Notes: generated from the letters alone by a model not told the origin. Positions 7,845 through 58,753 are shown, counted from the whole stretch's first letter. The stretch: DNA of 58,753 nucleotides, filler included, from Sphacelaria rigidula (GCA_964200075.2; 7 parts of 7 records of this genome joined end to end with filler, not necessarily neighbours in it), one strand, 5' to 3'. Translations and numbers: made by a program.

Positions 7845-8308
7845 CGAGGTTGAACAACGACAGCATCATATGCCGGAGCATTTATGAAAGTGGAATTCTG
7901 CGCCTCACACGTGTGGGCGGACATATTAGATGTAGTGAGCAGGTGGTCAGCAGGGCTGCTTCACCAAACCATCGTCCGGTGCAGCTAGTGGGAGGGAGGC
8001 GGAGTTCCGCGCCACACACACTCGAGCAGGTATGGTCGATGTGAAGAGCAAGCAGTGCGGCGAGGAGGGGTGCTCCACACACCCATCGTTCGGCGCAGCC
8101 GTTGGCAGGAAAGCGGAGTTCTGCGCCGCACACGCCCGAGCGCGTATGGTCTATATGAGACGTCAACGGTGCGGCGAGAAGGGCTGCTCCAAATCCGCTT
8201 CGTTCGGTGAAGCCGGTAGCAGCGAGGCGAAGTTCTGCGCCGCACACGCCCGAGCGCGTATGGTCTATATGAGACGTCAACGGTGCGGCGAGAAGGGCTG
8301 CTCCACAC
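7845..8308 (+). CDS. EsV-1-7 cysteine-rich repeat protein, truncated by the contig end; upstream repeats frameshifted, possibly a pseudogene
   Basis: 40-aa tandem units MVDVKSKQCGEEGCSTHPSFGAAVGRKAEFCAAHARAR and MVYMRRQRCGEKGCSKSASFGEAGSSEAKFCAAHARAR match the EsV-1-7 motif (C-x4-C-x3-PSFG...FC-x2-H...MV). The frame is open from ~7939. An earlier degenerate unit (KVEFCASHVWADILDVVSR) is in another frame. Confidence 0.85.
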
Positions 8309-9532: not shown

Positions 9533-11468
9533 ATGGCAGACCAAGGTGGTAGGCCTGCTCCAGTAGTCGGTGGGCAGGGTGTTAGTGGCCAATTGGGGAT
9601 GGTGACTAGCCAGCTGAGTTCCATGACTGAGCCACTGCGTGACTTACAGTCAGACAAAACTGCATTACGGGGTGAAGTAAATGACATTAGGGTAGTGAGA
9701 TAGTCCACAGCCGTTGAAACCAATGGCGTCCTCGATAGGAATGGTCCACAGAGGGAATCCAGAAGAAATATCAGTCCAGTAGAGGGACGAAATGCTGGAG
9801 TTCGATGGGACCGCCAGTACATCGGGACTCAAGCCGGACCGGGGGAAAGGAGCTCGCGACGCGGGGAACAACGGGGCCAGATACGACGGAGCTAGGGGCT
9901 TTGTCCCCGAGCGTGAGTCAGTCTACGTGAACGATGCAAGTGGGAATGTGTCAGGAGTTCCCGTTTTTCGACAGAGCGTCCCCAGACTTTCAGGGCAAAA
10001 CTCAGAGTTCGCACGGTTTAAACATAATAAGCTGATCAACTTCGCAAGCAGCGAAGGATCAGGGAAACACTCAGAGTTCGCACGGTTTAAACTTGAGCTG
10101 ATCAACTTCGCAAGGAGCGAAGGAATTGACTGGGTGTTTACCATGACCGGCGACAGTTCGCACGATGTGGACGTTGGCGACAATGAACTATCGCTGGGAT
10201 ATCTGGAGACTACATACGGGAAGGACATAGTGGCAGCCCAAGTGAGGGCGAGACGGATGATTGCTGGTAGTCTCGAAGGCAAGAGAGAGCAAGAGATACT
10301 GCTCAGACTTCACTCACCTGGTGCAGTTTGAAGAAAACTAGCAAATGCCTTCCGCCCCAAAACAAATGGGGCAAGAACCGCGTTGTTGGAAAAGTTTGAT
10401 GGAGTCAAGATTAGAGTCATCCTACGATAGGGGGGGGGGGGGGTATTTTGGGCCACTTCTTGCACGAAATTCCAAGTAAAATCATCCTTGAAAGAGGCAG
10501 CGGTTGCTCGAATGAGTTTGTTATCGATATATAACGCACGTTCATACCGATTAAAAGCGTTTTGAAACAAATACAAGCGCACAGCGAGTGTGGCAGGTCG
10601 TCTGGCACACTTTTGAGCCTCTTTTTTCGTGCAATCACATCCAGAAGCAATGGCTAGAGGATCGAGAGGGGCCGCTAACACGGGAGATTATGATTGCCTC
10701 GGTCCGAAAGCGCTTCGAGTCGGCCACTTTTAAAGGAGGAGCTTGCCCGGGGAAAGAAGTCGTCCCCGGGCGATCAGGCTCTCCTCGCCAAGGGTGGGAC
10801 CGGAAAACCGAGCGGTGCACACCGCAAAGGAAAACCGGGCAGACCCCAGGGCTCTGCTCAGAGAAATTGCGGGAGTCAGAATTCGAGTAACTCCGGGTCG
10901 ACATCGTCGGACGGAAAAGCGGCGACTGTGAAGGTGATCGGCTGCCACATTTGCGAAGAGGACACGACGCACCGTGCCAGGAACTGCCCGAAGAGATACT
11001 GCGGGAGGTGTTGTCAACAGGGGCACATGTTGTGGGAATCCTCGAGATCGACAGCGAAAAAAGAAGATGCCGCGATGGCGATAGGTGTGGCCGACGACAG
11101 CGATGACGCCTTCGTTATCTCGGGCGCGGACGGGGAGGCTTTCGCCTCTTTCGACACAACCATCTACGACGAAACAGGCGAGTACGCATTGTGTGTTGGG
11201 CAGGGGGGTGATGAACAGCAGGGTAAGAGCGAACCGTTGGTGTTTGACACGGAGGCTACAAATAATTTCTCCCCTGATTCCTGTGGGATGACGGAGTACA
11301 GAGAGTGTCAGGGTAGGGTACTACGGTGCGCGGGTGGTGGTACTTACTCGATCGTAGGCAGAGGAAATTTGTCTCTTGCTTTCAGATCTGACGGACAGGA
11401 TGTGGTGGTCAGATTAATGGACGATGATCATGTACCAAATGTCCGTCATCACCTCTTGTCACTCACAA
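9533..11468 (+). mobile_element. Ty1/copia LTR retrotransposon, decayed gag (two Zn knuckles) plus protease; continues at 15890-15950
   Basis: Gag-like VPRLSG..EFARFK...; CHICEEDTTHRARNC and CGRCCQQGH knuckles; protease LVFDTEATNNF...GRGNL...HVPNVRHHLLSLT. The frame resumes after the nested element as TRIQKSGHTYTGFRVG. Contains stops, frameshifts and a MITE at 10414. Confidence 0.85.
10414..10631 (+). mobile_element. Sola2-like MITE left end inserted in copia gag
   Basis: Terminus GAGTCATCCTACGATAGGGGG...TATTTTGGG; body homologous to 20716-20930; same terminus at 50313. Confidence 0.65.
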
Positions 11469-14400
11469 TGTCGACCTAGCCACCATCGTTATCTAAGGTC
11501 AGGGACAATATAGGTGGAGTTGCGGGTCTGATTGCCGGACTCTGTGACGGTGACCTCCATGACGAGTAGAGCCGGTTTTGCTACTCTGGTGGAGAGAGGC
11601 TATGGTCCTGTTCTCCTGTACTTTGCTGAGGGTTAATATATGATTAACTAAAGCTGCTGAAGTTCATGTGCCCGTGATGGGAGGAGCCCACAAGGTGATC
11701 TAATCTTGAGTGACAGAAATCTACAATGCATGTTCATTAAGTCCGCTGATGGCGGTAGATCCGCTGAAAAACAGCTGACACTTCAGGATAGGGAAGTCTG
11801 CAGGCCTGATCAGTTTGCAGCAAACAAGACCAGCTCAAGGCGTGTTAACGTCGCGAGGAGTTGGAGAAGTAGAGACGAGGAGGTTCTGAGGGAGTGCTAG
11901 GGTCGGCTGTGGTATTGCTCGTGCGAGAGGTGCGGGGGATTGACCGACAGCTGGCGAGCCTGTGCGCGTTCCAGAAAAAACGGCGCAGTTACCGTACTGC
12001 CTGGTGGAGCCAGCGAGGTTTGCTTATTCCACGCTTGGCCAGGTACGGCCAGGAAGAGGAGTCTAAGGACTTCATACACGTGGTGAGACCTGCGTGAGGA
12101 AGAGGCGCTGTGGCCATTTTCGTTTGGTGGTCAAGCAGGTCTTGGTACAAGGAGAGGGAGGCGACTTCGTTTTTCAAAAAGGCGTGTGGAGTGCTGTACT
12201 GCTGACCGAAATGTACGAGGTGCAGGAGTATGTCGCCGTGGACGGCCATGTTGTTCGTGCGCCGCAACAGTATGTTGTCATCGATAGTCGCGTTGTCCGT
12301 GTACGATTTCTGGATATGCCGTACTACGGTCGCAAGTTCTCAAGTGAAAAATCTGCTCAGTTTCGGCGGAAGTATGAGGACTACCTTCGTGAGGTGCACG
12401 CAACGAACGAGCGTCAAGCACGCTGGCACGTTGTTGAGGAGCCAGCGGTCTCTGAGCTCATGCCCACACATATCGAGAACTGTATATGTGACACATTTTT
12501 GGATGGTGCTAATGATGTTGGGCAAGAGAAATTGCTCTTTGCGCTGCGCAAGCATGCATCTCATGCATCGCCGAGTGTGGTGCAAGATAGTGTGAAGGTC
12601 GGCGGCGGTGGAGACAGGCACGACATTTTGATGGGCAAGAGGGCGACACAACATAGGCTTGTCCGAGTGCGCAGGCACGAGAGTGCTAGAGGCGTTGCCG
12701 CTATTGCCGTCAAGAAGCAAGCCGGACAGAAGGTGGCGGCTGTAGCGAGTATGGGTGATACTGCTGCTGCTTCTGGCGATGTTGAGAGAGCAGGACCTAC
12801 ATGGGCCAATGAGCAAGTACTGGTGGGTGGAGGTCCCAGTTGATTTTTGCCGCCAAACCAGCGCGTAGCTGAAGATACTCCTTGCATGCTCGAAGCTGCA
12901 GGGGGTGTTATTCGCGTATGGCGAGCGAGCAGGGTGAGCAAGGAGCTTGCCGTGCTCATAGTTAATCTATCTGTGCCAGTTACATGGCGGAAGATCGATT
13001 AGATGATGCGCAGGGGTGTCTGCTTGAAGGACAGGTGGATGCCGGGTTGGAGGAATTGCCGCCGGACCAGCGCGTAGCTGTGGACACGCCTGATATGATC
13101 GAAACAATAGGAGCGTGTGACCCGCGTGAAGCGGGTACACAGAGCGAGCCGCAAGCTCGTGATGCTGTTAGCGATCATCATTCTGACGGCGACAACGAGC
13201 ATCGCGTGGTGTTGGGGTGGTCGTGTGCACTGCTGTGTGCATGGACAGGTTTGGCGTTTTTGGCGGCGTCGATTGCGGTGTCTTTGCCGCTGTACGGTGC
13301 TGGAGATGGATGGCGTGATGCCATCGGGAGGTGTTGCTGTGCGGGACTGCATGGATGTTCCGGTTTTGCCTCTTACTTCCTCTGTAGAAGCGGCTGAAGA
13401 ATGAGCGTTCGTGAATGCGCAAGCATCTGTGGGGGCGGAGGATCTGTCGCATTGGTTTGGCGATGCGAATATACCTTTGAGCAGCGTGTTGAGCTACACC
13501 ATGGGGGTGCCAGGTGTAGCAAGACTGAAGGTGCAAGGAGGGAGTGTCCGAGAGGAAAGGCTGCTCTACGCTGTGCACGGGGTTGTGGTTCGAGTACTGC
13601 TGTTTCTCAGGAGCGGGCTGGAGGACTACAAAGAAGGCATTGCCTGACGTGTTTGCTGTTGTGGTGAGCGCCGAGTGGGGTACTGATGTTGAGGAGCAAG
13701 TGCTGTGGTGACTGAGTGCTTGTTGAGAATGAGGAAATACATTACGACTGGTATTCGCGAATCGTTTTGAGAATGATTCCAGCTTGTTATTGTGCGGTTT
13801 GTGGTCATGCTTGCGCATGAAACATGGTTGTTGAGCGAATATGATCGTATCGCGTGTGCAGGGAAAAACTCTGGCGTACACGTGGGTATTTGGCATGTGT
13901 GTGTTACGCTGATCTGGTTGGCACGGACGATGCATGGTGTTTGCTGCGAGGAAGGTGGCATTGCATGTGCTGAGTGAAATATTGACATGCATGTGCGGAT
14001 TTCATACGCTAAGTGGAAATTTGGCAGGCATGTGCGAATGTTTGCTCGAATGGCACTGATATGAATGGTATCTGGTGACGACCTAGGGTGGGGCAGTTTT
14101 CAATATACTGCTGTATGCTAAATGAAGTGAAGCTCGTATAATCTTGTTCGCGCAGAACACAGTCTAATCAGTTTTGTGCGGTTTGCACGTACTGACTGCA
14201 GGATATATGGATTGCTGCTGTTGGCGTGAAAATGAGCTGAGAGGCATGAAATGCGCAGGCTCGTACTGACAGTAGGAGTCGTTGACACCTGCTGTTAGCG
14301 TGAAAATGAGCTGAAAGGTACGATATGCGTAGGCTCGTCGGACGTGAGCAGGTAAGACGCGAGTGCTTCCGGTGGTGGAAGGTAAAGACATGATGCGCGC

Positions 14401-16671: not shown

Positions 16672-16716
16672 GGGGGGGCGTACTCATTTGTTGCTTGCCT
16701 TAGTCGTTTGACCATT
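16672..16716 (-). mobile_element. C-tailed LINE family 3' end; other copies at 19429-19530(-), ~25290-25450(+), ~27650-27735(+), ~27755-27825(+), 55675-55745(-)
   Basis: Shared AATGGTCAAACGACTAAGGCAAGCAACAAATGAGTACGCCCCC, encoding ...GCVVNGQTTKASNK*. Confidence 0.85.
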
Positions 16717-16899
16717 NNNNNNNNNNNNNNNNNNNNNNNNNNNNNNNNNNNNNNNNNNNNTTAATTAATTAANNNNNNNNNNNNNNNNNNNNNNNNNNNN
16801 NNNNNNNNNNNNNNNNTGTCCTTCTGTCCCTTTCGCTTTTTCCCTATCCATGCGTACTCTTCAACTTTGCATCCTATTTCTACCCCCGTAGAAAGTGAG

Positions 16900-34260: not shown

Positions 34261-34809
34261 TATAACACGGGATTTTACAAATTGGGGATGGATCTTATAT
34301 TGGGGATGAAAACCCAGAGAATTAAAATCTTTGTATCCACACCAAATCTTCGAAGTATGCTTCCATTTCTTCACTTGCTGGTAGCGATTGACAACTACTA
34401 CACGCCATACAAATTTGGATTTGGATAACCGAAATTTTGGGGTCCTAGGTGAAAAAGCAGTTCTTGGGGATTTGAGGTGTCCGATCGGACGCCAAAAAAC
34501 ACGGGTGACCACTGGGGTGCGTGTAACCTCAAATTTGGACTTTACAGACGTTACACAAGGTCTGTACCGTTCAAATTTGAGGTCGCAGGCACCCCAGTGG
34601 CCACCCGTGTAGGTTTTTCACCTAGAACCACGACATTTCGGTCATCGAAATCCCAATTTGTATGGCGTGTAGTAGTCGTCAATAGCTACCAGCAAGTGAA
34701 AAAATGGAAGCATACTTCGAAGGTTTGGTGTGAATACGAATATTTTAACTCTCCGGGTTTTCATCCCCAATAAAAGATACATCCCCAATTTGTAAAATCC
34801 CGTGTTATA
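34261..34809. mobile_element. Foldback/palindromic MITE (~550 bp), TA-flanked, followed by a partial extra arm at 34812-34900
   Basis: TATAACACGGGATTTTACAAATTGGGGATG ... CATCCCCAATTTGTAAAATCCCGTGTTATA. The arms pair to a small loop at ~34553 apart from one ~40-bp bulge. Confidence 0.9.
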
Positions 34810-36630
34810 TGTCGAAGATTTGGTGCGGATACGAATACTTCACATCTCCGGGTTCTCGTCCCCAATAAAAGATCCATCCCCAATTTGCAAAATCACGTGT
34901 TTTTTTTGGCATGCCGAGTGAAGCAAGGGACCTCCGGTGGTGACTCAGCTACTGCTGGCGTGGTCCGCATGGAGCGAGGCTGCGGTGCGCTGTTTCTGAT
35001 GCACGACCAACGCGCACTGGGGTACGCTATCGACCGACATGAAGCCGCGTATCCTTCCTTTGCCCCCAGCGGGAGGAGCTCCGTCGAGGAACACCCCCTG
35101 CGTTATGGAGAGACGTCCCATATCCTAACATTCTGAACTCCTTCCCTAGGCTTCTCATTCCCCGCCCCCAGATGCGTCTGCACACCAGTTTGTAGCGGAT
35201 CACCACAGTGGGTATGTGCCTAGTCGGAGATGGAACCCACTTCTTAGCTGCAATGATAATAGAACGTGAGTGCTCGTGGCTGCGCGTGAAACCACTGGAT
35301 GACTCGCTACCCGCTCTAGCTCTTTGTTTCACCGATTCACCGGCTTCTTCTTGCCCTTCTTGTGGTCAGGGGTACAAGGAGAAGGTGAGTCACGTCTTCT
35401 GGATGAGCCACGCTTAAGTCCGAATACCGACGCGTCATCCTCGGCGTTTTCTTCCACTCAAACCGGATACCCATCAGAATCATGGTGGCTGCCTGGCCTC
35501 TGCTGACTCTACTCCTTCGGACGTGGGTATTGACTCATCGCCAAACTGACAGACGTTGAAGAGCAGCCAAAATTGTGCACTTGTGAGGTGTTTCACATGA
35601 CCTAGGGCCGCTTCCTCGCAGTGCACCGTTTATTGAGGAGCAAGACGGTTGTCACTCGAGATCTTGATGGGTTGAGCAGACGACAGACTTGCGTGGGGTA
35701 CTGCATCGCCTTTCTTATTCTATTATTTCTTCAAGTGTCACTCGCTTGCTTGGTGTACGCCTTTAGCTGAACTTTCTCTCTGAGCCTTAGCCCTCAAGCC
35801 CAACTATAGAGCTCATAATGAAGCCACGGAGTCGTTCTGGCTCGGCTGAATCACACTGGCTACGGTACGGGTTCCCGCAACGTTCATGTGGGTGCCTTGT
35901 ACTCACCTGTACTGGCTCCTACCAGGCTTGTTGGCTACATGCCCGAGAATCCACGTATAAGATCCATGTCCAATAAAAAAATTGCGCAATCCATGATCGT
36001 ATAGTGGTAACACCGGAGAGCTGATGCGATCACGCCCAACGTGCTAGGTACGAGATGACTGTATATTTGTTTTGATTACCAATGAAGCTGCGTGATGGAC
36101 CTGGACCTTCCAGACTCGTTCCGACTTCCACCGCCTTTTCCGTTTTGACATCCTTGGTCGAGAACGGCGATTTGAACGTTTGTTGGCTTTGTGCGAGGCT
36201 GTCCTCGCTTGGCATGCATCCCACACCCTCCGGTGGCCCCTTCACCGCCCTCATCACTTCCTTTGCCGCAGGCGTTTCCCCCCTCAATTTGGCCAAGGAT
36301 AGAACCGTCTGCAATCGGTACGCGTTTATTATCTAGCCTCACTCTTTTGCTATCGCCCAGCGTCTCCGGTACTTCGGCGATCCGGCCCCACTCACGGTTA
36401 TCTCCGTTTGAGAAGGCACGATCCTCTAGTCCTTCCGTTGTATTTCCCCTGCTATGGCCACTTTCCATCTGTCAGCGTCGGGTCCTGCCAGGCCTTCTTT
36501 GGCTGTCGACAGTTTCTGAGATCTGATGGCGATTCCGCCCCCGAGTATGCAGAATGTGCCTTCGTCTTGATTTTGTAGAATGGTGGGTAGGAAATTTCCG
36601 TCATCAGAACTGCTGTCGTCAGAACTCCTA

Positions 36631-54771: not shown

Positions 54772-55674
54772 AGGCCGTTTCTTCCGGTTGGTTATTTTCC
54801 CTCGTTATTTGCAAATAACGAGGGGAAATAACAAGTTGGTTACTTACGGTTGGTTATTTCACAAGATTCTCGGGAAAAAAATGCGAGACGGGGGACATTT
54901 TACGAGATGGGCCATCCTGGCTTGTACTTTTTTTTTAAATACGAGACGAGATCGACTTGTATTTTCCTCTCATTTTTTTCATTCGCGGCACGGCGAGACT
55001 AGCAACGCCCGCCAGCCCTGAATATGTTTGTGCCCTTCGACATCTAGGGGGCTCTCCTGACAGCAATGTCGAACATCCCCAGCGCCGTTTATACACTAGA
55101 CCAAACTTTGCTTCGCCATCCCGGCACACGCGAGATGTCGTCAGGGGCTGATGATCTATTGGCATCGATCGTGCTCTCGAAAACCTGCAGCACAGACAGT
55201 ACGGTACCCAGCGCAGAGATTACAGGGTACTACTCTGTGCTGTCTGATGCAGTGAGTTGTAGGTGTCAGTTTGCATACAGCAGTAGTACGCACGGCTGTA
55301 GTAAAAATGATGCATACAACGTGAGATATGTGGACAACGTGCAACACAGACAACACCAGGCAGTACTGTACTGTCTGCACTGCCGCAGTGGACAGTAGGA
55401 TCCACATGCCATGCTGCACCCAACGACGACTGCCGAAAATGATTTGGACGACGTGCAGTAGAGAAGGCGCCCCCACTTAAGAACTTGGCAGTTAAGAAAT
55501 TGAAGCTCAAAAAAATTGAAATCTAAGAACTTGGCCATAAGAACAAGTGCTCAGTTCCGACGTGATATTAAGGACAAGAACCCGCCTTTGTGGTGTTAAG
55601 ATGAGCATAGATATAAGAACAGAGCCCCAAATGCGGCGGGTGCATGAATAAGAACGAGGGATCCGACGCCACAG

Positions 55675-55745
55675 GGGGCGTACTCATTTGTTGCTTGCCT
55701 TAGTCGTTTGACCATTGACCACGCATCCCTTTCGAGACGGAGCAT
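55675..55745 (-). mobile_element. 71-bp 5'-truncated LINE insertion in the pogo element with 11-bp TSD
   Basis: CGACGCCACAG at 55664-74 and 55746-56 flanks the LINE 3' end. Confidence 0.9.
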
Positions 55746-55877
55746 CGACGCCACAGAGGGGGGTGGTTCCAGATTTTTGTCTGACGAGCGGGGGGATCAG
55801 TTTCCCATAGCGTACTGTACCCCTTTCGTGTGCGGGCCAGTTCTTTCGCCTGCTGCATGCATGCAGGGCGGGGGACC

Positions 55878-57604
55878 ATGCCTTTATCCCTTGAGACACT
55901 GCAAGAGCTCGAGTAACTGTCAAAGCTGAAAGGGAGAGGTGTCATTCTTGATCGACAGTTCTAAACCCTCAAAGAACATATCAAGGCCGGCAACTGCCTC
56001 ACGAAGGGACAGTGGGAGGCCGTCGAGTTGACGTGGGGTTTGAAAAGCTACGGCGTCTTTCTTCTCGGAAGAAGGGTGGGAAGCCGAGATTGATGGGCAA
56101 ATCCGGGAGATCATCAGCAGCGCTCGCCCTTCGCTGCTGTCACAGCAAGCTGCTGGCGCGCTAGGCGCACCCTGGACGTCACGGAGGCGGCCACCTGCTG
56201 CAGCGGATCGCAGGACTGTGGATCGAGGGAGGGAAAGCAAGAAGAGAGCCGCCGCAAACACCGTCGGCGGCAACATCATGAACGCCTTCGCTCTTGGCAG
56301 CGGACAGCCGATGAGTTCACCCTTGGAAATAATTATGTACAAGCTGTTCTTGGGTCGCCGCAAGAGGAAGCTGAAGGTGTCGACCCTCTGGCTCACCGTC
56401 ACGTTCCGGAAGCTGCTGCAGGAGAAGTGCCCTACCGATAACCGGGCGGCGGAGTTTCGCCCGTCATTCAGGTGGATGGAAAAGTGGGCAAAGAGACACA
56501 GCGTGGTACAGCGGCGCCGGACCAACTTGAAGACCAAGTCCGTCGAGGAACGCCTGCCGCAAATCCAGCGGTTCCACCGGAGGTTTAGCGAGCTGCTACA
56601 AGAGGCGGTGCGCCGCACGGGGAGCATCTTCCCTGAGGCTGCACCGCTGTCTTCGGGTGAGACCAGGCTAGAGAAGTACGGGCAGTTCCAGGTGGATGAG
56701 CGTTTGGGCGTGGATGAGGTGCCTTTGCTGTTTGTGAACGGGTTGACATCGACGTGGGAAAAGGAAGGGGCGACGCGTGTTGCCATCAGCCAGCCCTTCG
56801 CTGGACTGGAGAAGAGGCAGTGCACCATGAAAGTCATCTTTGGTCCCGGAAAGAAGCTCATGCGGATTGCGCTCATTTTCCGAGGCACCGGGAGGCGGAT
56901 CTCGCGGGTGGAGAAGGCCGCGTACCACAAGAACGTGGACGTCTTTTTCCAGAAGAAAGCGTGGGCCGACCAGAAGTTCTGCATGGAGTGGGCCAAGAAG
57001 TCCTACCGCCCGAGCTTGATGCGCGGGAGGAGCCAGCTGCCCCAGGAGAGGGCGCTCCTTCTCATGGACAACTTGCACGCGCAGACGACGCCGGAGTTCA
57101 AGGGATATCTGGCGAAGCACTGCAACACGCTCGCGTGGTATTTCCCGACGAACATCACGGACAAGCTGCAGCCCGTGGAAGCAGGAGCCGGACGCATGCT
57201 GAAGGTGGAGATTGGCAAGCTACAGGACGCGTGGCTTGACCAGTCGGACAACGTTGAAAGGTGGGAAAGCAACTCGTTGACGGCATCTGACCGACGGGTG
57301 CTGATCACGCAATGGGTCGGAAAAGCCATGGAAATTCTCGACAAACGCGAGGAGTACCGGTTTCGCCTTTTCGAAAAGTGTGGCATGGCGATGACTGCCG
57401 ACGGCTCAGGCAACGGCCGCATCAACTTGGAGGGTTTGGAAAAGCCGTACACCTCCATGGGCGAGGACTCGAGCGACGACGAGGGACCCTCACAGACTGG
57501 CAACGAAGGGTCCGGGGGGGGGGGTGACCAGAGGGGGGGGAATGAGGGGGACCAAGGCGGGGAGGGCATGGAGGACGGCGATTCCAACGACGAAGACAAC
57601 GACG
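55878..57604 (+). CDS. pogo transposase exon 1 (CENP-B-type HTH plus DDE_1); the 5' part has two premature stops and a frameshift
   Basis: LEIIMYKLF..RRKRKLKVS...FRPSFRWMEKWAKRHSVVQRRRT (HTH_Tnp_Tc5-like); GVDEVPL, QKKAWAD, LLLMDNLHAQ, FPTNITDKLQPVEAG; acidic tail. Confidence 0.9.
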
Positions 57605-57740
57605 GCAAGTCGGAATTTCATCGAGTCTCCCCCCACAAATTTGTTGTTGTTGTTGCTGTTGCCTTTGAATCCACTGATATTTGTATGGGTGGCAATACGT
57701 TTGATAACGTTATGTGGTTTGCAAATGCCGCTCGTTGCAG

Positions 57741-58195
57741 ACATCCCCAGCAGCCAGATCGACGAGCTGAGCCTTGTGGACGACGACTACAGCATGGACC
57801 CGGAGGATGAGATTCATGGCATGGAGATTCCGGACGGCCTTCGCATTCAAGTGTCTTCACCCGCAGCTCTTGGCAGTTCCATACTCCAGCGTGGAGTCCT
57901 TGTTAGGCTGGGCATGGGTCGGTTTGGTGGGCTCATCACTCGGCAGTCTCAGGAGCGTACTCGCCGTGTTCACGACTACCGTGTGCATTTCGAAGTAGAC
58001 CAGAGTACGCGTAGCATGAAGCTGCCGTGGGAAATGTACAGTGGAGATCCGGATGCGGTGGTAGGCTCTTGGGTTTTGCTTGAGAGGAGCACGGTAGAGC
58101 AGGTGGATGGGGTGAGAGCTGCAGCCACGTTGGGCGTCAGCAGGGCGGGAAGAGTACGCACTCCCAACGTGACCCTTGTGGACCAGGAAGGGTGA
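57741..58195 (+). CDS. Probable exon 2 of the transposase (Tudor/SH3-barrel-like C-terminal domain)
   Basis: Candidate GC-AG intron 57605-57740 (G|GCAAGT ... TTGCAG|AC) joins in frame to DIPSSQIDEL...VLVRLGMGRFGGLIT...DYRVHFEVD...YSGDPDAVVGSWVLL...*. Confidence 0.65.
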
Positions 58196-58753
58196 GGGTT
58201 GCTTGATGCCGTGAGGGGTTTCCATACTTGTACTTTCCAGTGATCGTGATGCTGCGACGCGTTCGAATGTCTGTTGTGCTCACAAGCGTTTTTCAATCGA
58301 CAAGCGGAGGGTGCGTATGTAGTTCACCACGAACGGACTTTGCCATACCCCCCTGGAGCACTGGGTGTTGAAATAAGAACAAGAACCCGCGTTTTCAGGG
58401 ACGAGTGCCTGGCCAAATATGAACTAGGCAAATAAGAACAGGTGCTCGGGTTGAGGCAAAAAATAAGCCTGAGCCTCACGCAAAATAAGCGGTTCTCAAG
58501 TGCGGGCGCCTACTGTACAGTAGGATGGAAATGTTGGTTTGCCAGTACAGAACAGAGTAGTACAACGGCTGTACTAAATAAGATGTGGGCAACGCGCAGT
58601 GCAGACAGAACTAAGCAATACAATTCTGTCTGCTCTGCCTGCCGCATACAACAGTATACATGCGCACATGTCAGGTTGGAGACGGTAATAGACAACGGCT
58701 GCACTAAAATTGATGTGGAGGAGTCCACTAGGCAGTACATTCTTTAGTCTGTA

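Follow-up and report, generated by a model that had tools for sequence, protein, structure and literature searches.

The question raised by this locus is whether a pogo-type transposase can carry, on a second exon, a small domain of the kind that reads chromatin. The locus lies near the end of a stretch of Sphacelaria rigidula DNA (58,753 nucleotides, joined from several records of the genome with filler; referred to here as the window), for which a first reading, the original prediction, had proposed a pogo transposase with a spliced C-terminal Tudor-like domain. Our analysis identifies the locus as a decayed, non-autonomous copy of a brown-algal DNA transposon of the pogo superfamily with DD36D-type spacing. 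The explanation that we favour as a whole, and hold with slightly more confidence than doubt, combines this decayed pogo copy with a spliced-on barrel domain that would serve its family as a chromatin tether.

The proposed pogo identity held up. The long frame at 56044-57810 contains a DDE_1 domain that scores 48.5 bits against a cut-off of 22 and occupies residues 271-404 of the exon-1 frame, and the element has both the duplicated TA target site and the terminal inverted repeats (TIRs) of the pogo superfamily. The features on which the argument turns are as follows.

56044-57604, + strand: transposase exon 1, an open frame of 520 codons plus one base (open reading frame (ORF), Pfam, tblastn)
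56854-57255, + strand: DDE_1 catalytic core (Pfam DDE_1, PF03184, E 9.7e-13)
57460-57604, + strand: acidic and glycine-rich linker tail ending in ...DEDNDG (frame translation)
57605-57740, + strand: candidate phase-1 intron of 136 nt, G/GCAAGT ... TTGCAG/AC (motifs, conservation boundaries of relatives, Ectocarpus junction)
57741-58195, + strand: exon 2, 150 codons after a split D codon, with TGA stop (ORF, relatives)
57833-58087, + strand: predicted Tudor/SH3-like beta-barrel core, exon-2 residues 31-115 (AlphaFold2, VIA-align)
58139-58192, + strand: conserved basic C-terminal tail (SRAGRVRTPNVTLVDQEG), recurring at the C-terminus of relatives and of low predicted local distance difference test score (pLDDT)

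The acidic tail of the transposase ends in ...GAC AAC GAC G/GCAAGT at 57604/57605, and the 136 nt that follow equal 3x45+1. Joining 57604 to 57741 yields GAC (D) and then IPSSQIDELSLVDDDYS..., in the frame of the ORF 57395-58195, which closes with the TGA stop at 58193-58195. The coordinates originally given for this GC-AG candidate, which was said to restore the frame into an exon of about 150 residues within the TIRs, are confirmed, and the peptides reported from that exon (VLVRLGMGRFGGLITRQ, DYRVHFEVD, LPWEMY and GSWVLL) are all present. Frame restoration alone is nevertheless not above chance, because both frames are open across the region and 41 GT/GC..AG pairs, counted by script, give an open product with the right ending, one of them being the GT-AG pair at 57609-57750. 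We therefore dropped it as evidence in itself, and it is homology with the relatives that lifts the 57604/57741 junction above chance.

That homology takes several forms. Eight of the nine Ectocarpus gene models examined run from the transposase through the acidic tail into the exon-2 domain, with junctions such as DEDDG-D(T/I)SQ..DEL (the model P0004 is 936 amino acids long). In six of seven sister ORFs from unannotated contigs, conservation ends at '...D-G-K-(F/L)' and gives way to junk until the stop, an end that corresponds to G/G(C/T)AAGT(T) being read through, where the window reads DGKSEF. Conversely, exon-2 ORFs that start upstream resume conservation at '(A/T/P)D' after unconserved pyrimidine-rich codons (7/8), which corresponds to a YAG/AC acceptor. 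Distant pogo relatives carry the helix-turn-helix (HTH) and DDE_1 domains, the acidic linker and the same motif pattern within one predicted protein. Together, the Ectocarpus models, the sister ORF boundaries and the distant relatives bear out the claim that exon 2 belongs to the transposase. Judging from these sequence comparisons, the barrel is very likely an integral, spliced-on part of the enzyme, and we infer splicing at 57604^57741, which in brown algae would place it behind a short phase-1 intron at the end of the acidic linker.

The exon-2 sequence itself is conserved across brown algae. It matches 222 representative clusters (50% identity) at E <= 1e-3, 87 of them at E <= 1e-10, and among 106 further near-length matches are named proteins of Sphacelaria rigidula, Laminaria digitata, Pylaiella littoralis, Scytosiphon promiscuus and several Ectocarpus species. 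Unmatched by any Pfam model and unannotated at present, these 222 clusters would define a new domain family. Among the aligned relatives the best-kept residues are W60 (57/64), Y77 (53/65), D86 (53/63), Y99 (46/54) and W110 (43/51), and F61, G63, I65, D78, Y79, V81, P95 and G108 are also well kept in 64-65 aligned sequences. The suggestion that other copies might have W in place of the R of the window's GRF motif proved correct, both in these 57 relatives and in every sister contig covering 57920 in runs X2, X5 and X6, where that base is T (TGG, W); likewise, 57966 is A in every sister contig (H instead of R). A profile of the barrel used in hmmsearch also found five distant pogo relatives at independent E-values of 5e-6 to 1.4e-3. 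Many relatives bear at their extreme C-terminus the basic motif SR(A/S)GR.R.PNV.L.DQ(E/D)G, which is predicted to be disordered.

The fold predicted for this domain is that of a five-stranded SH3-like beta-barrel. AlphaFold2, run with a 67-sequence alignment, placed strands at exon-2 residues 33-35, 51-56, 59-68, 78-83, 89-93 and 110-115; the mean pLDDT of the exon-2 model was 75, and means over blocks of ten residues were 83-92 across residues 31-120, apart from one block at 73. An independent model of the distant relative P0291 (553 residues, 37% identical to P0004 in the alignment) repeated this order of strands at 444-546, with barrel blocks at pLDDT 84-93, one block at 73 and a disordered linker at 401-434 before the barrel. 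Compared by VIA-align with 48,161 representative chains, of which 21 reached Z >= 5 and none Z >= 8, the model was closest to the RDM15 Tudor domain (7de9_A, Z 6.5, root-mean-square deviation (rmsd) 2.1, 56/58 residues aligned), followed by the Esa1 knotted Tudor (6.2), Spindlin-4 (6.0), the SH3-like domain of TraI (5.8), a PWWP domain bound to single-stranded DNA (5.4), Agenet (5.3) and the Spt5 KOW domain (5.2). The C-terminal Tudor domain of PcrA/UvrD also scored Z 5.2. In a second set of 996 chains ranked by Foldseek, repeat 2 of Spindlin1 (6i8b_B) came first, with Z 7.0, rmsd 2.4 and 64 residues aligned. Spindlin (Spin/Ssty) and the RDM15 Tudor domain are thus the best structural neighbours, at 9-16% sequence identity and unmatched at the profile level; the pogo protein has one barrel, to which a strand is added at the N-terminus, in contrast to the three tandem repeats of Spindlin.

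Several results count against reading exon 2 as a spliced-on domain of the Tudor type. With respect to splicing, the 57604^57741 joint is absent from the 15 joints listed, out of 42, for runs X1, X2, X5 and X6, whose contigs are genomic-like and silent on splicing; one contig in X5 and X6 crosses the acceptor (57712-57999). With respect to the family, the hmmsearch E-values refer only to the 320-sequence set searched, and P0282 and P0300 gave no hmmsearch match and were aligned by eye only. With respect to the fold, VIA-align's own guidance treats a best Z of 7-8 as typical for models without a clear match, and KOW, PWWP, TraI SH3-like and other barrels trail the Tudor matches by no more than about 1-2 Z units. 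Foldseek found nothing in the PDB at E <= 0.001, its top rows (E 0.06-0.3, the best at 0.06) being KOW, Tudor, PWWP and SAWADEE barrels with KOW first. Pfam assigned no family to exon 2 of the window, and across 67 family members no Tudor, Agenet, PWWP, MBT or SAWADEE profile of the royal family was matched, a weak Chromo_MORC2_6th match in one member (E 0.028) being the sole related one. A search of the PDB with a sequence profile met nothing beyond chance similarity to antibody heavy chains (E 0.15-1.6), and no usable match to exon 2 came from the ESM Atlas.

The proposed Tudor-like character is partly borne out: the predicted SH3-like barrel and its nearest neighbours agree with it, but the Z values are middling and no Tudor-family Pfam model matches. 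On the strength of the models we consider it probable that the fold is an SH3-like small barrel, with the Tudor type favoured and not proven.

The intact transposase that we propose would begin with a helical region at its N-terminus, continue with a C2H2 finger, a Tc5/CENP-B-type HTH and the DDE_1 core, and end in a disordered acidic linker, a Tudor/Spindlin-type SH3-like barrel of about 90 residues with five strands, and a short basic tail. The second exon would hold the barrel in brown algae, behind the short phase-1 intron. It is plausible that, through the barrel, the transposase or transpososome is anchored on chromatin, with a modified histone tail as the likeliest partner, and that this tethering biases the integration site in the way that chromodomains do for chromovirus integrases. 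The idea that the barrel is a histone-mark reader targeting insertion rests on analogy and is put forward tentatively, with rather less than even credence. We favour it because the nearest folds are readers, the best-kept residues are aromatic or acidic, fusions between transposable elements (TEs) and readers are recurrent, and Ectocarpus Gypsy elements carry chromodomains and a Tudor domain. A more specific version, that in an algal pogo clade (brown algae, with relatives in a green alga and among marine eukaryote sequences) the Tudor/Spindlin-like domain reads a heterochromatin mark and steers integration into silenced, repeat-rich chromatin, is doubtful, if worth stating. According to the accessible part of a preprint (bioRxiv 10.1101/2021.11.30.470311), Ectocarpus TEs carry H3K79me2 and H4K20me3, and it is speculation on our part that these marks are candidate ligands of the barrel.

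The closest parallels come from retrotransposons. Chromovirus-type Ty3/Gypsy integrases such as that of MAGGY, and the chromodomain-bearing Gypsy elements of Ectocarpus, likewise consist of a DDE-type enzyme followed by a C-terminal royal-family-like small barrel, and the chromodomain is described as directing insertion to H3K9me chromatin in work cited in the portions available of PMC12477816 and bioRxiv 10.1101/2021.11.30.470311. These are retrotransposon integrases whose chromodomain profiles are matched, whereas here the element is a cut-and-paste pogo transposon, the barrel is unmatched and the targeting putative. Within the same host lineage, the portion of PMC12477816 (2025) at hand describes Ectocarpus Gypsy elements with chromodomains and one, Gypsy-10_Ec32, with a C-terminal Tudor domain, which its authors regard, to their knowledge, as the earliest report of a TE with such a domain. 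The idea is the same as for the pogo barrel, a Tudor domain at the C-terminus; Gypsy-10_Ec32 differs in being a long terminal repeat (LTR) retrotransposon whose Tudor domain is recognisable by CDD (cd20401), and the two are likened by description, not by sequence. For the Mariner-Tc1 elements of Ectocarpus, that portion mentions only an N-terminal EsV-1-7 domain, in TcMar-2_Ec32.

Among DNA transposons, TE-reader fusions involving Chromo and PHD domains are documented in the accessible part of the preprint (bioRxiv 10.1101/2021.11.30.470311), and PHD is present in Ginger1 (PMC2836005). Ginger1-9_HM and Mutator elements with PHD and a sponge hAT with Chromo likewise join a cut-and-paste transposase to a reader-type domain, but in other transposase superfamilies and with other reader folds. 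CENP-B, POGK and POGZ share with the present family a pogo core to which domains have been added, in CENP-B at the C-terminus; they are domesticated single-copy host genes, and their additions (a dimerisation helix, KRAB and zinc fingers) are unrelated, whereas the family described here is multi-copy and mobile, with TIRs and TA duplications. Our full-text literature searches found no paper in which a pogo or Tc1-mariner transposase has a C-terminal domain of Tudor-like or SH3-like type, although the supplement of the preprint on TE-reader fusions might list one, and the portions available of two pogo surveys (PMC7386202, PMC7325037) mention no such domain; this agrees with the original prediction, whose author was not aware of the domain being typical of pogo elements. 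A transposase fused to a chromatin-reader-like domain is already known as a kind, to which a pogo transposase with a Tudor-like barrel would be an addition.

Of the other explanations, the one that survives best, although we think it unlikely, accepts the barrel as part of the transposase and makes it a generic SH3-like module that binds nucleic acid or protein without recognising a histone mark, its partner being target or donor DNA, RNA (in the manner of KOW domains) or a host factor. The SH3-like C-terminal domain of retroviral integrases, for example, holds target or donor DNA; no such domain was among the fold matches listed for exon 2, which does not imply its exclusion. The Spt5 KOW, DNA-bound PWWP, PcrA/UvrD and TraI barrels lie near the Tudor domains in Z, the first Foldseek row is a KOW domain, the Pfam profiles of reader families are unmatched, and a conserved basic tail (SR.GR.R.PNV) follows the barrel, all of which would suit a generic module. 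Against it, the top VIA-align neighbours in both lists, Spindlin, RDM15 and Esa1, are histone-tail readers, and conservation is strongest at aromatic or acidic residues (W, Y, Y, D, Y, W), the types that line reader pockets, although these could equally belong to the core. The long acidic linker before the barrel would also, we infer, be unusual beside a DNA-binding surface.

Transposases act as multimers, and the barrel might instead hold transposase subunits together, a role comparable to that of the GPY/F module in Gypsy integrases or of the C-terminal domain through which CENP-B dimerises. A precedent exists within the superfamily, in that the pogo-derived CENP-B gained a C-terminal dimerisation domain, as stated in the available text of PMC7386202. 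Known dimerisation modules were absent from the fold-search results, and computation gave no support. A homodimer prediction with two copies of residues 25-125 reached no verdict, scoring 0.00 with a mark of 0.32, in a run that left the alignment unused and in which the domain's own fold was uncertain. We regard this role as improbable.

Still less probable is that exon 2 is a separate second gene, unspliced to the transposase, with its ATG just upstream at 57722. The closest named protein, P0168 of Sphacelaria rigidula (89% identical), speaks for this and against the spliced structure, being annotated as a stand-alone protein of 156 amino acids whose ATG lies inside the putative intron (MPLVAD...), and the same M is found in the ORFs P0173 and P0179. 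In other subfamilies that M is absent, P0180, P0193 and P0205 reading ...P(T/L)F(A/T)D instead; conservation starts only at the acceptor, the Ectocarpus models join both parts, and in the distant relatives a single predicted protein contains HTH, DDE_1 and barrel. The idea that exon 2 is an ORF arisen by chance, or a piece of host sequence picked up by the window copy alone, could be entertained only on the grounds that this copy is otherwise decayed, and it can be dismissed given the 222 clusters at E <= 1e-3, the conservation across named brown-algal genera, the confident predicted fold and the same position after DDE_1 in relatives.

The spliced, barrel-bearing transposase that we prefer to these alternatives is not made by the locus itself, as a closer comparison of the first exon with intact relatives makes clear. 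Two further features are needed here.

55875-56313, + strand: N-terminal transposase remnant (tblastn of P0004, aligned to its residues 4-151)
56323-56514, + strand: weak Tc5/CENP-B-type HTH (Pfam HTH_Tnp_Tc5, E 0.12)

The remnant is interrupted by two in-frame stops and by a frameshift near 56056-56060, which is gone in sister contigs because 4 nt are absent there at 56056. Between it and the rest of the frame, about 213 residues (152-364 of P0004) are missing, comprising the C2H2 finger and the upstream DNA-binding part; the flanking alignments are only 21 nt apart, so the gap is read as a deletion relative to P0004, and an intron at this point was considered and dropped. The HTH scores 12.8 bits in the window, under the cut-off of 22.2, and P0004 (E 0.01) is likewise under it; the cut-off is reached by the distant relatives P0282, P0287, P0291, P0293 and P0307, and others have this as a precomputed family. 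The catalytic residues lie at 56713-56715 (D), 57067-57069 (D) and 57178-57180, the third being E in the window copy and D in P0004 and P0011, a change that we read as decay. In the barrel the window copy has W60R and Y77H, and it differs at eight exon-2 positions, R60 and H77 among them, from the consensus shared by at least 60% of relatives. In the model of P0291 the equivalent of the acidic linker is disordered (pLDDT < 50).

The window copy is therefore dead and internally deleted: with two stops, a 4-nt frameshift, a deletion of about 213 residues, the catalytic D to E change, W60R and Y77H, no working fusion protein can come from this locus, and the biology discussed above belongs to the family. 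In the intact relatives P0004, P0010 and P0300 the HTH is preceded by a conserved helical segment at the N-terminus and one C2H2-type finger; public records give P0004, a transposase, the name 'C2H2 zinc finger protein'. Other public gene models containing this transposase (P0013, P0265, P0272 and P0274) are chimeric, with Copia RVT_2, membrane-protein-like or gag-like tails, which suggests mis-joined annotations around elements.

The second and third catalytic residues are 36 residues apart in the window copy, P0004 and P0011 (computed by script), the DD36D spacing of Mover. This spacing is reported for all Mover pogo elements, whose hosts are stramenopiles and red algae and whose DNA-binding domain went undetected by hmmscan, in the consulted part of the survey by Gao et al. 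(2020, PMC7386202). The family resembles Mover, as described there, in its DDE_1 domain, TA duplication, TIRs, 36-residue spacing, stramenopile hosts and hard-to-detect DNA-binding domain. It differs in that no C-terminal barrel is mentioned for Mover in that part of the survey (PMC7386202) and in that the third catalytic residue is E in the window copy, against D in Mover. 'Ectocarpus' and 'Saccharina' have no occurrences in the species lists of the survey's supplement, as far as it was available (PMC7386202). From the sequences, 'Mover-like' is a lead only, drawn from spacing rather than from placement in a tree.

The transposon as a whole runs as TA, 55461-58515, TA, and measures 3,055 bp with TIRs of 24 nt.

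55459-55460, no strand: left TA target-site duplication (sequence and empty-site contigs)
55461-55484, + strand: left TIR (GAGAAGGCGCCCCCACTTAAGAAC), of which 20/24 bases equal the reverse complement of the right end
55674-55744, no strand: very-high-copy short repeat of about 71 bp, nested in the 5' non-coding part of the element (window copies and word depth)
58492-58515, - strand: right TIR, 20/24 match to the left TIR
58516-58517, no strand: right TA target-site duplication (sequence and empty-site contigs)

The imperfect TIRs, GAGAAGGCGCCCCCACTTAAGAAC and CAGTAGGCGCCCGCACTTGAGAAC, are identical at 20/24 terminal bases. Contigs from the public DNA runs X2 and X5 show an empty site in which 55457 is joined directly to 58515; the 3057 nt skipped are accounted for by the 3055-bp element and one TA, which is an independent demonstration of its borders and of the TA duplication. 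The window holds one copy of the element. It is inserted within another, higher-copy repeat, whose empty-site form is present in the two runs: the flanks at 55380-55460 and 58516-58640 reach about 10-25x (left) and 3-6x (right) the depth of most of the element interior, and the summed word depth at 55400-55505 is 1,339 in X5 and 4,715 in X6, against about 50-180 and 200-520, respectively, in most of the interior. Short inverted matches link the flanks (55227-55243 with 58547-58563 and 55368-55383 with 58596-58611).

The nested repeat of about 71 bp, preceded by a G-run, has a word depth of 1e5-9e6 in the DNA runs, as opposed to about 60-500 elsewhere in the element, and seven further copies occur in the window near 16674, 19447, 21867, 24987, 25377, 27655 and 27751. 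Many contigs 'go back' by 63-72 nt at this repeat, which suggests tandem or densely repeated copies, and an Rfam search of the element, this repeat included, gave no match. The hexamer AAGAAC, often as TAAGAAC, occurs six times in the first 200 nt or so inside the left end and three times near the right end (55478-55654 and 58374-58438), always on the + strand, and may represent subterminal repeats bound by the transposase.

Elsewhere in the window, the open frame at 10694-11479 (+ strand) resembles Pol_BBD, the Pol beta-barrel of retrotransposons, at a score below threshold (26.3 bits, cut-off 27; E 9.3e-6), and is probably a remnant of a decayed LTR retrotransposon; Pfam matched none of the 12 further long ORFs scanned in the window. 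Tandem arrays of 114 bp x3.1 and 95 bp x1.9 lie at 7952-8308 and 34717-34901, and a run of N starts near 16717, with 548 N in the window in total.

The usual view of Tc1-mariner and pogo elements is that a TA suffices for insertion and that the transposase has no chromatin preference of its own. At the level of annotation, the correct gene structure would clean up brown-algal gene sets, in which this family appears as a stand-alone 156-residue protein, as a 'C2H2 zinc finger protein' and in chimeric models, and a barrel of this kind would offer a natural tethering module for transposon-based tools. If the reading is true, the Tudor-carrying Gypsy element reported in 2025 would gain a counterpart among DNA transposons, and the family would provide the first cut-and-paste pogo/Tc1-mariner element with a built-in module for targeting histone marks, convergent with the chromoviruses. 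A reader-like barrel conserved among pogo transposases would then suggest that integration in this superfamily, too, can be guided by chromatin.

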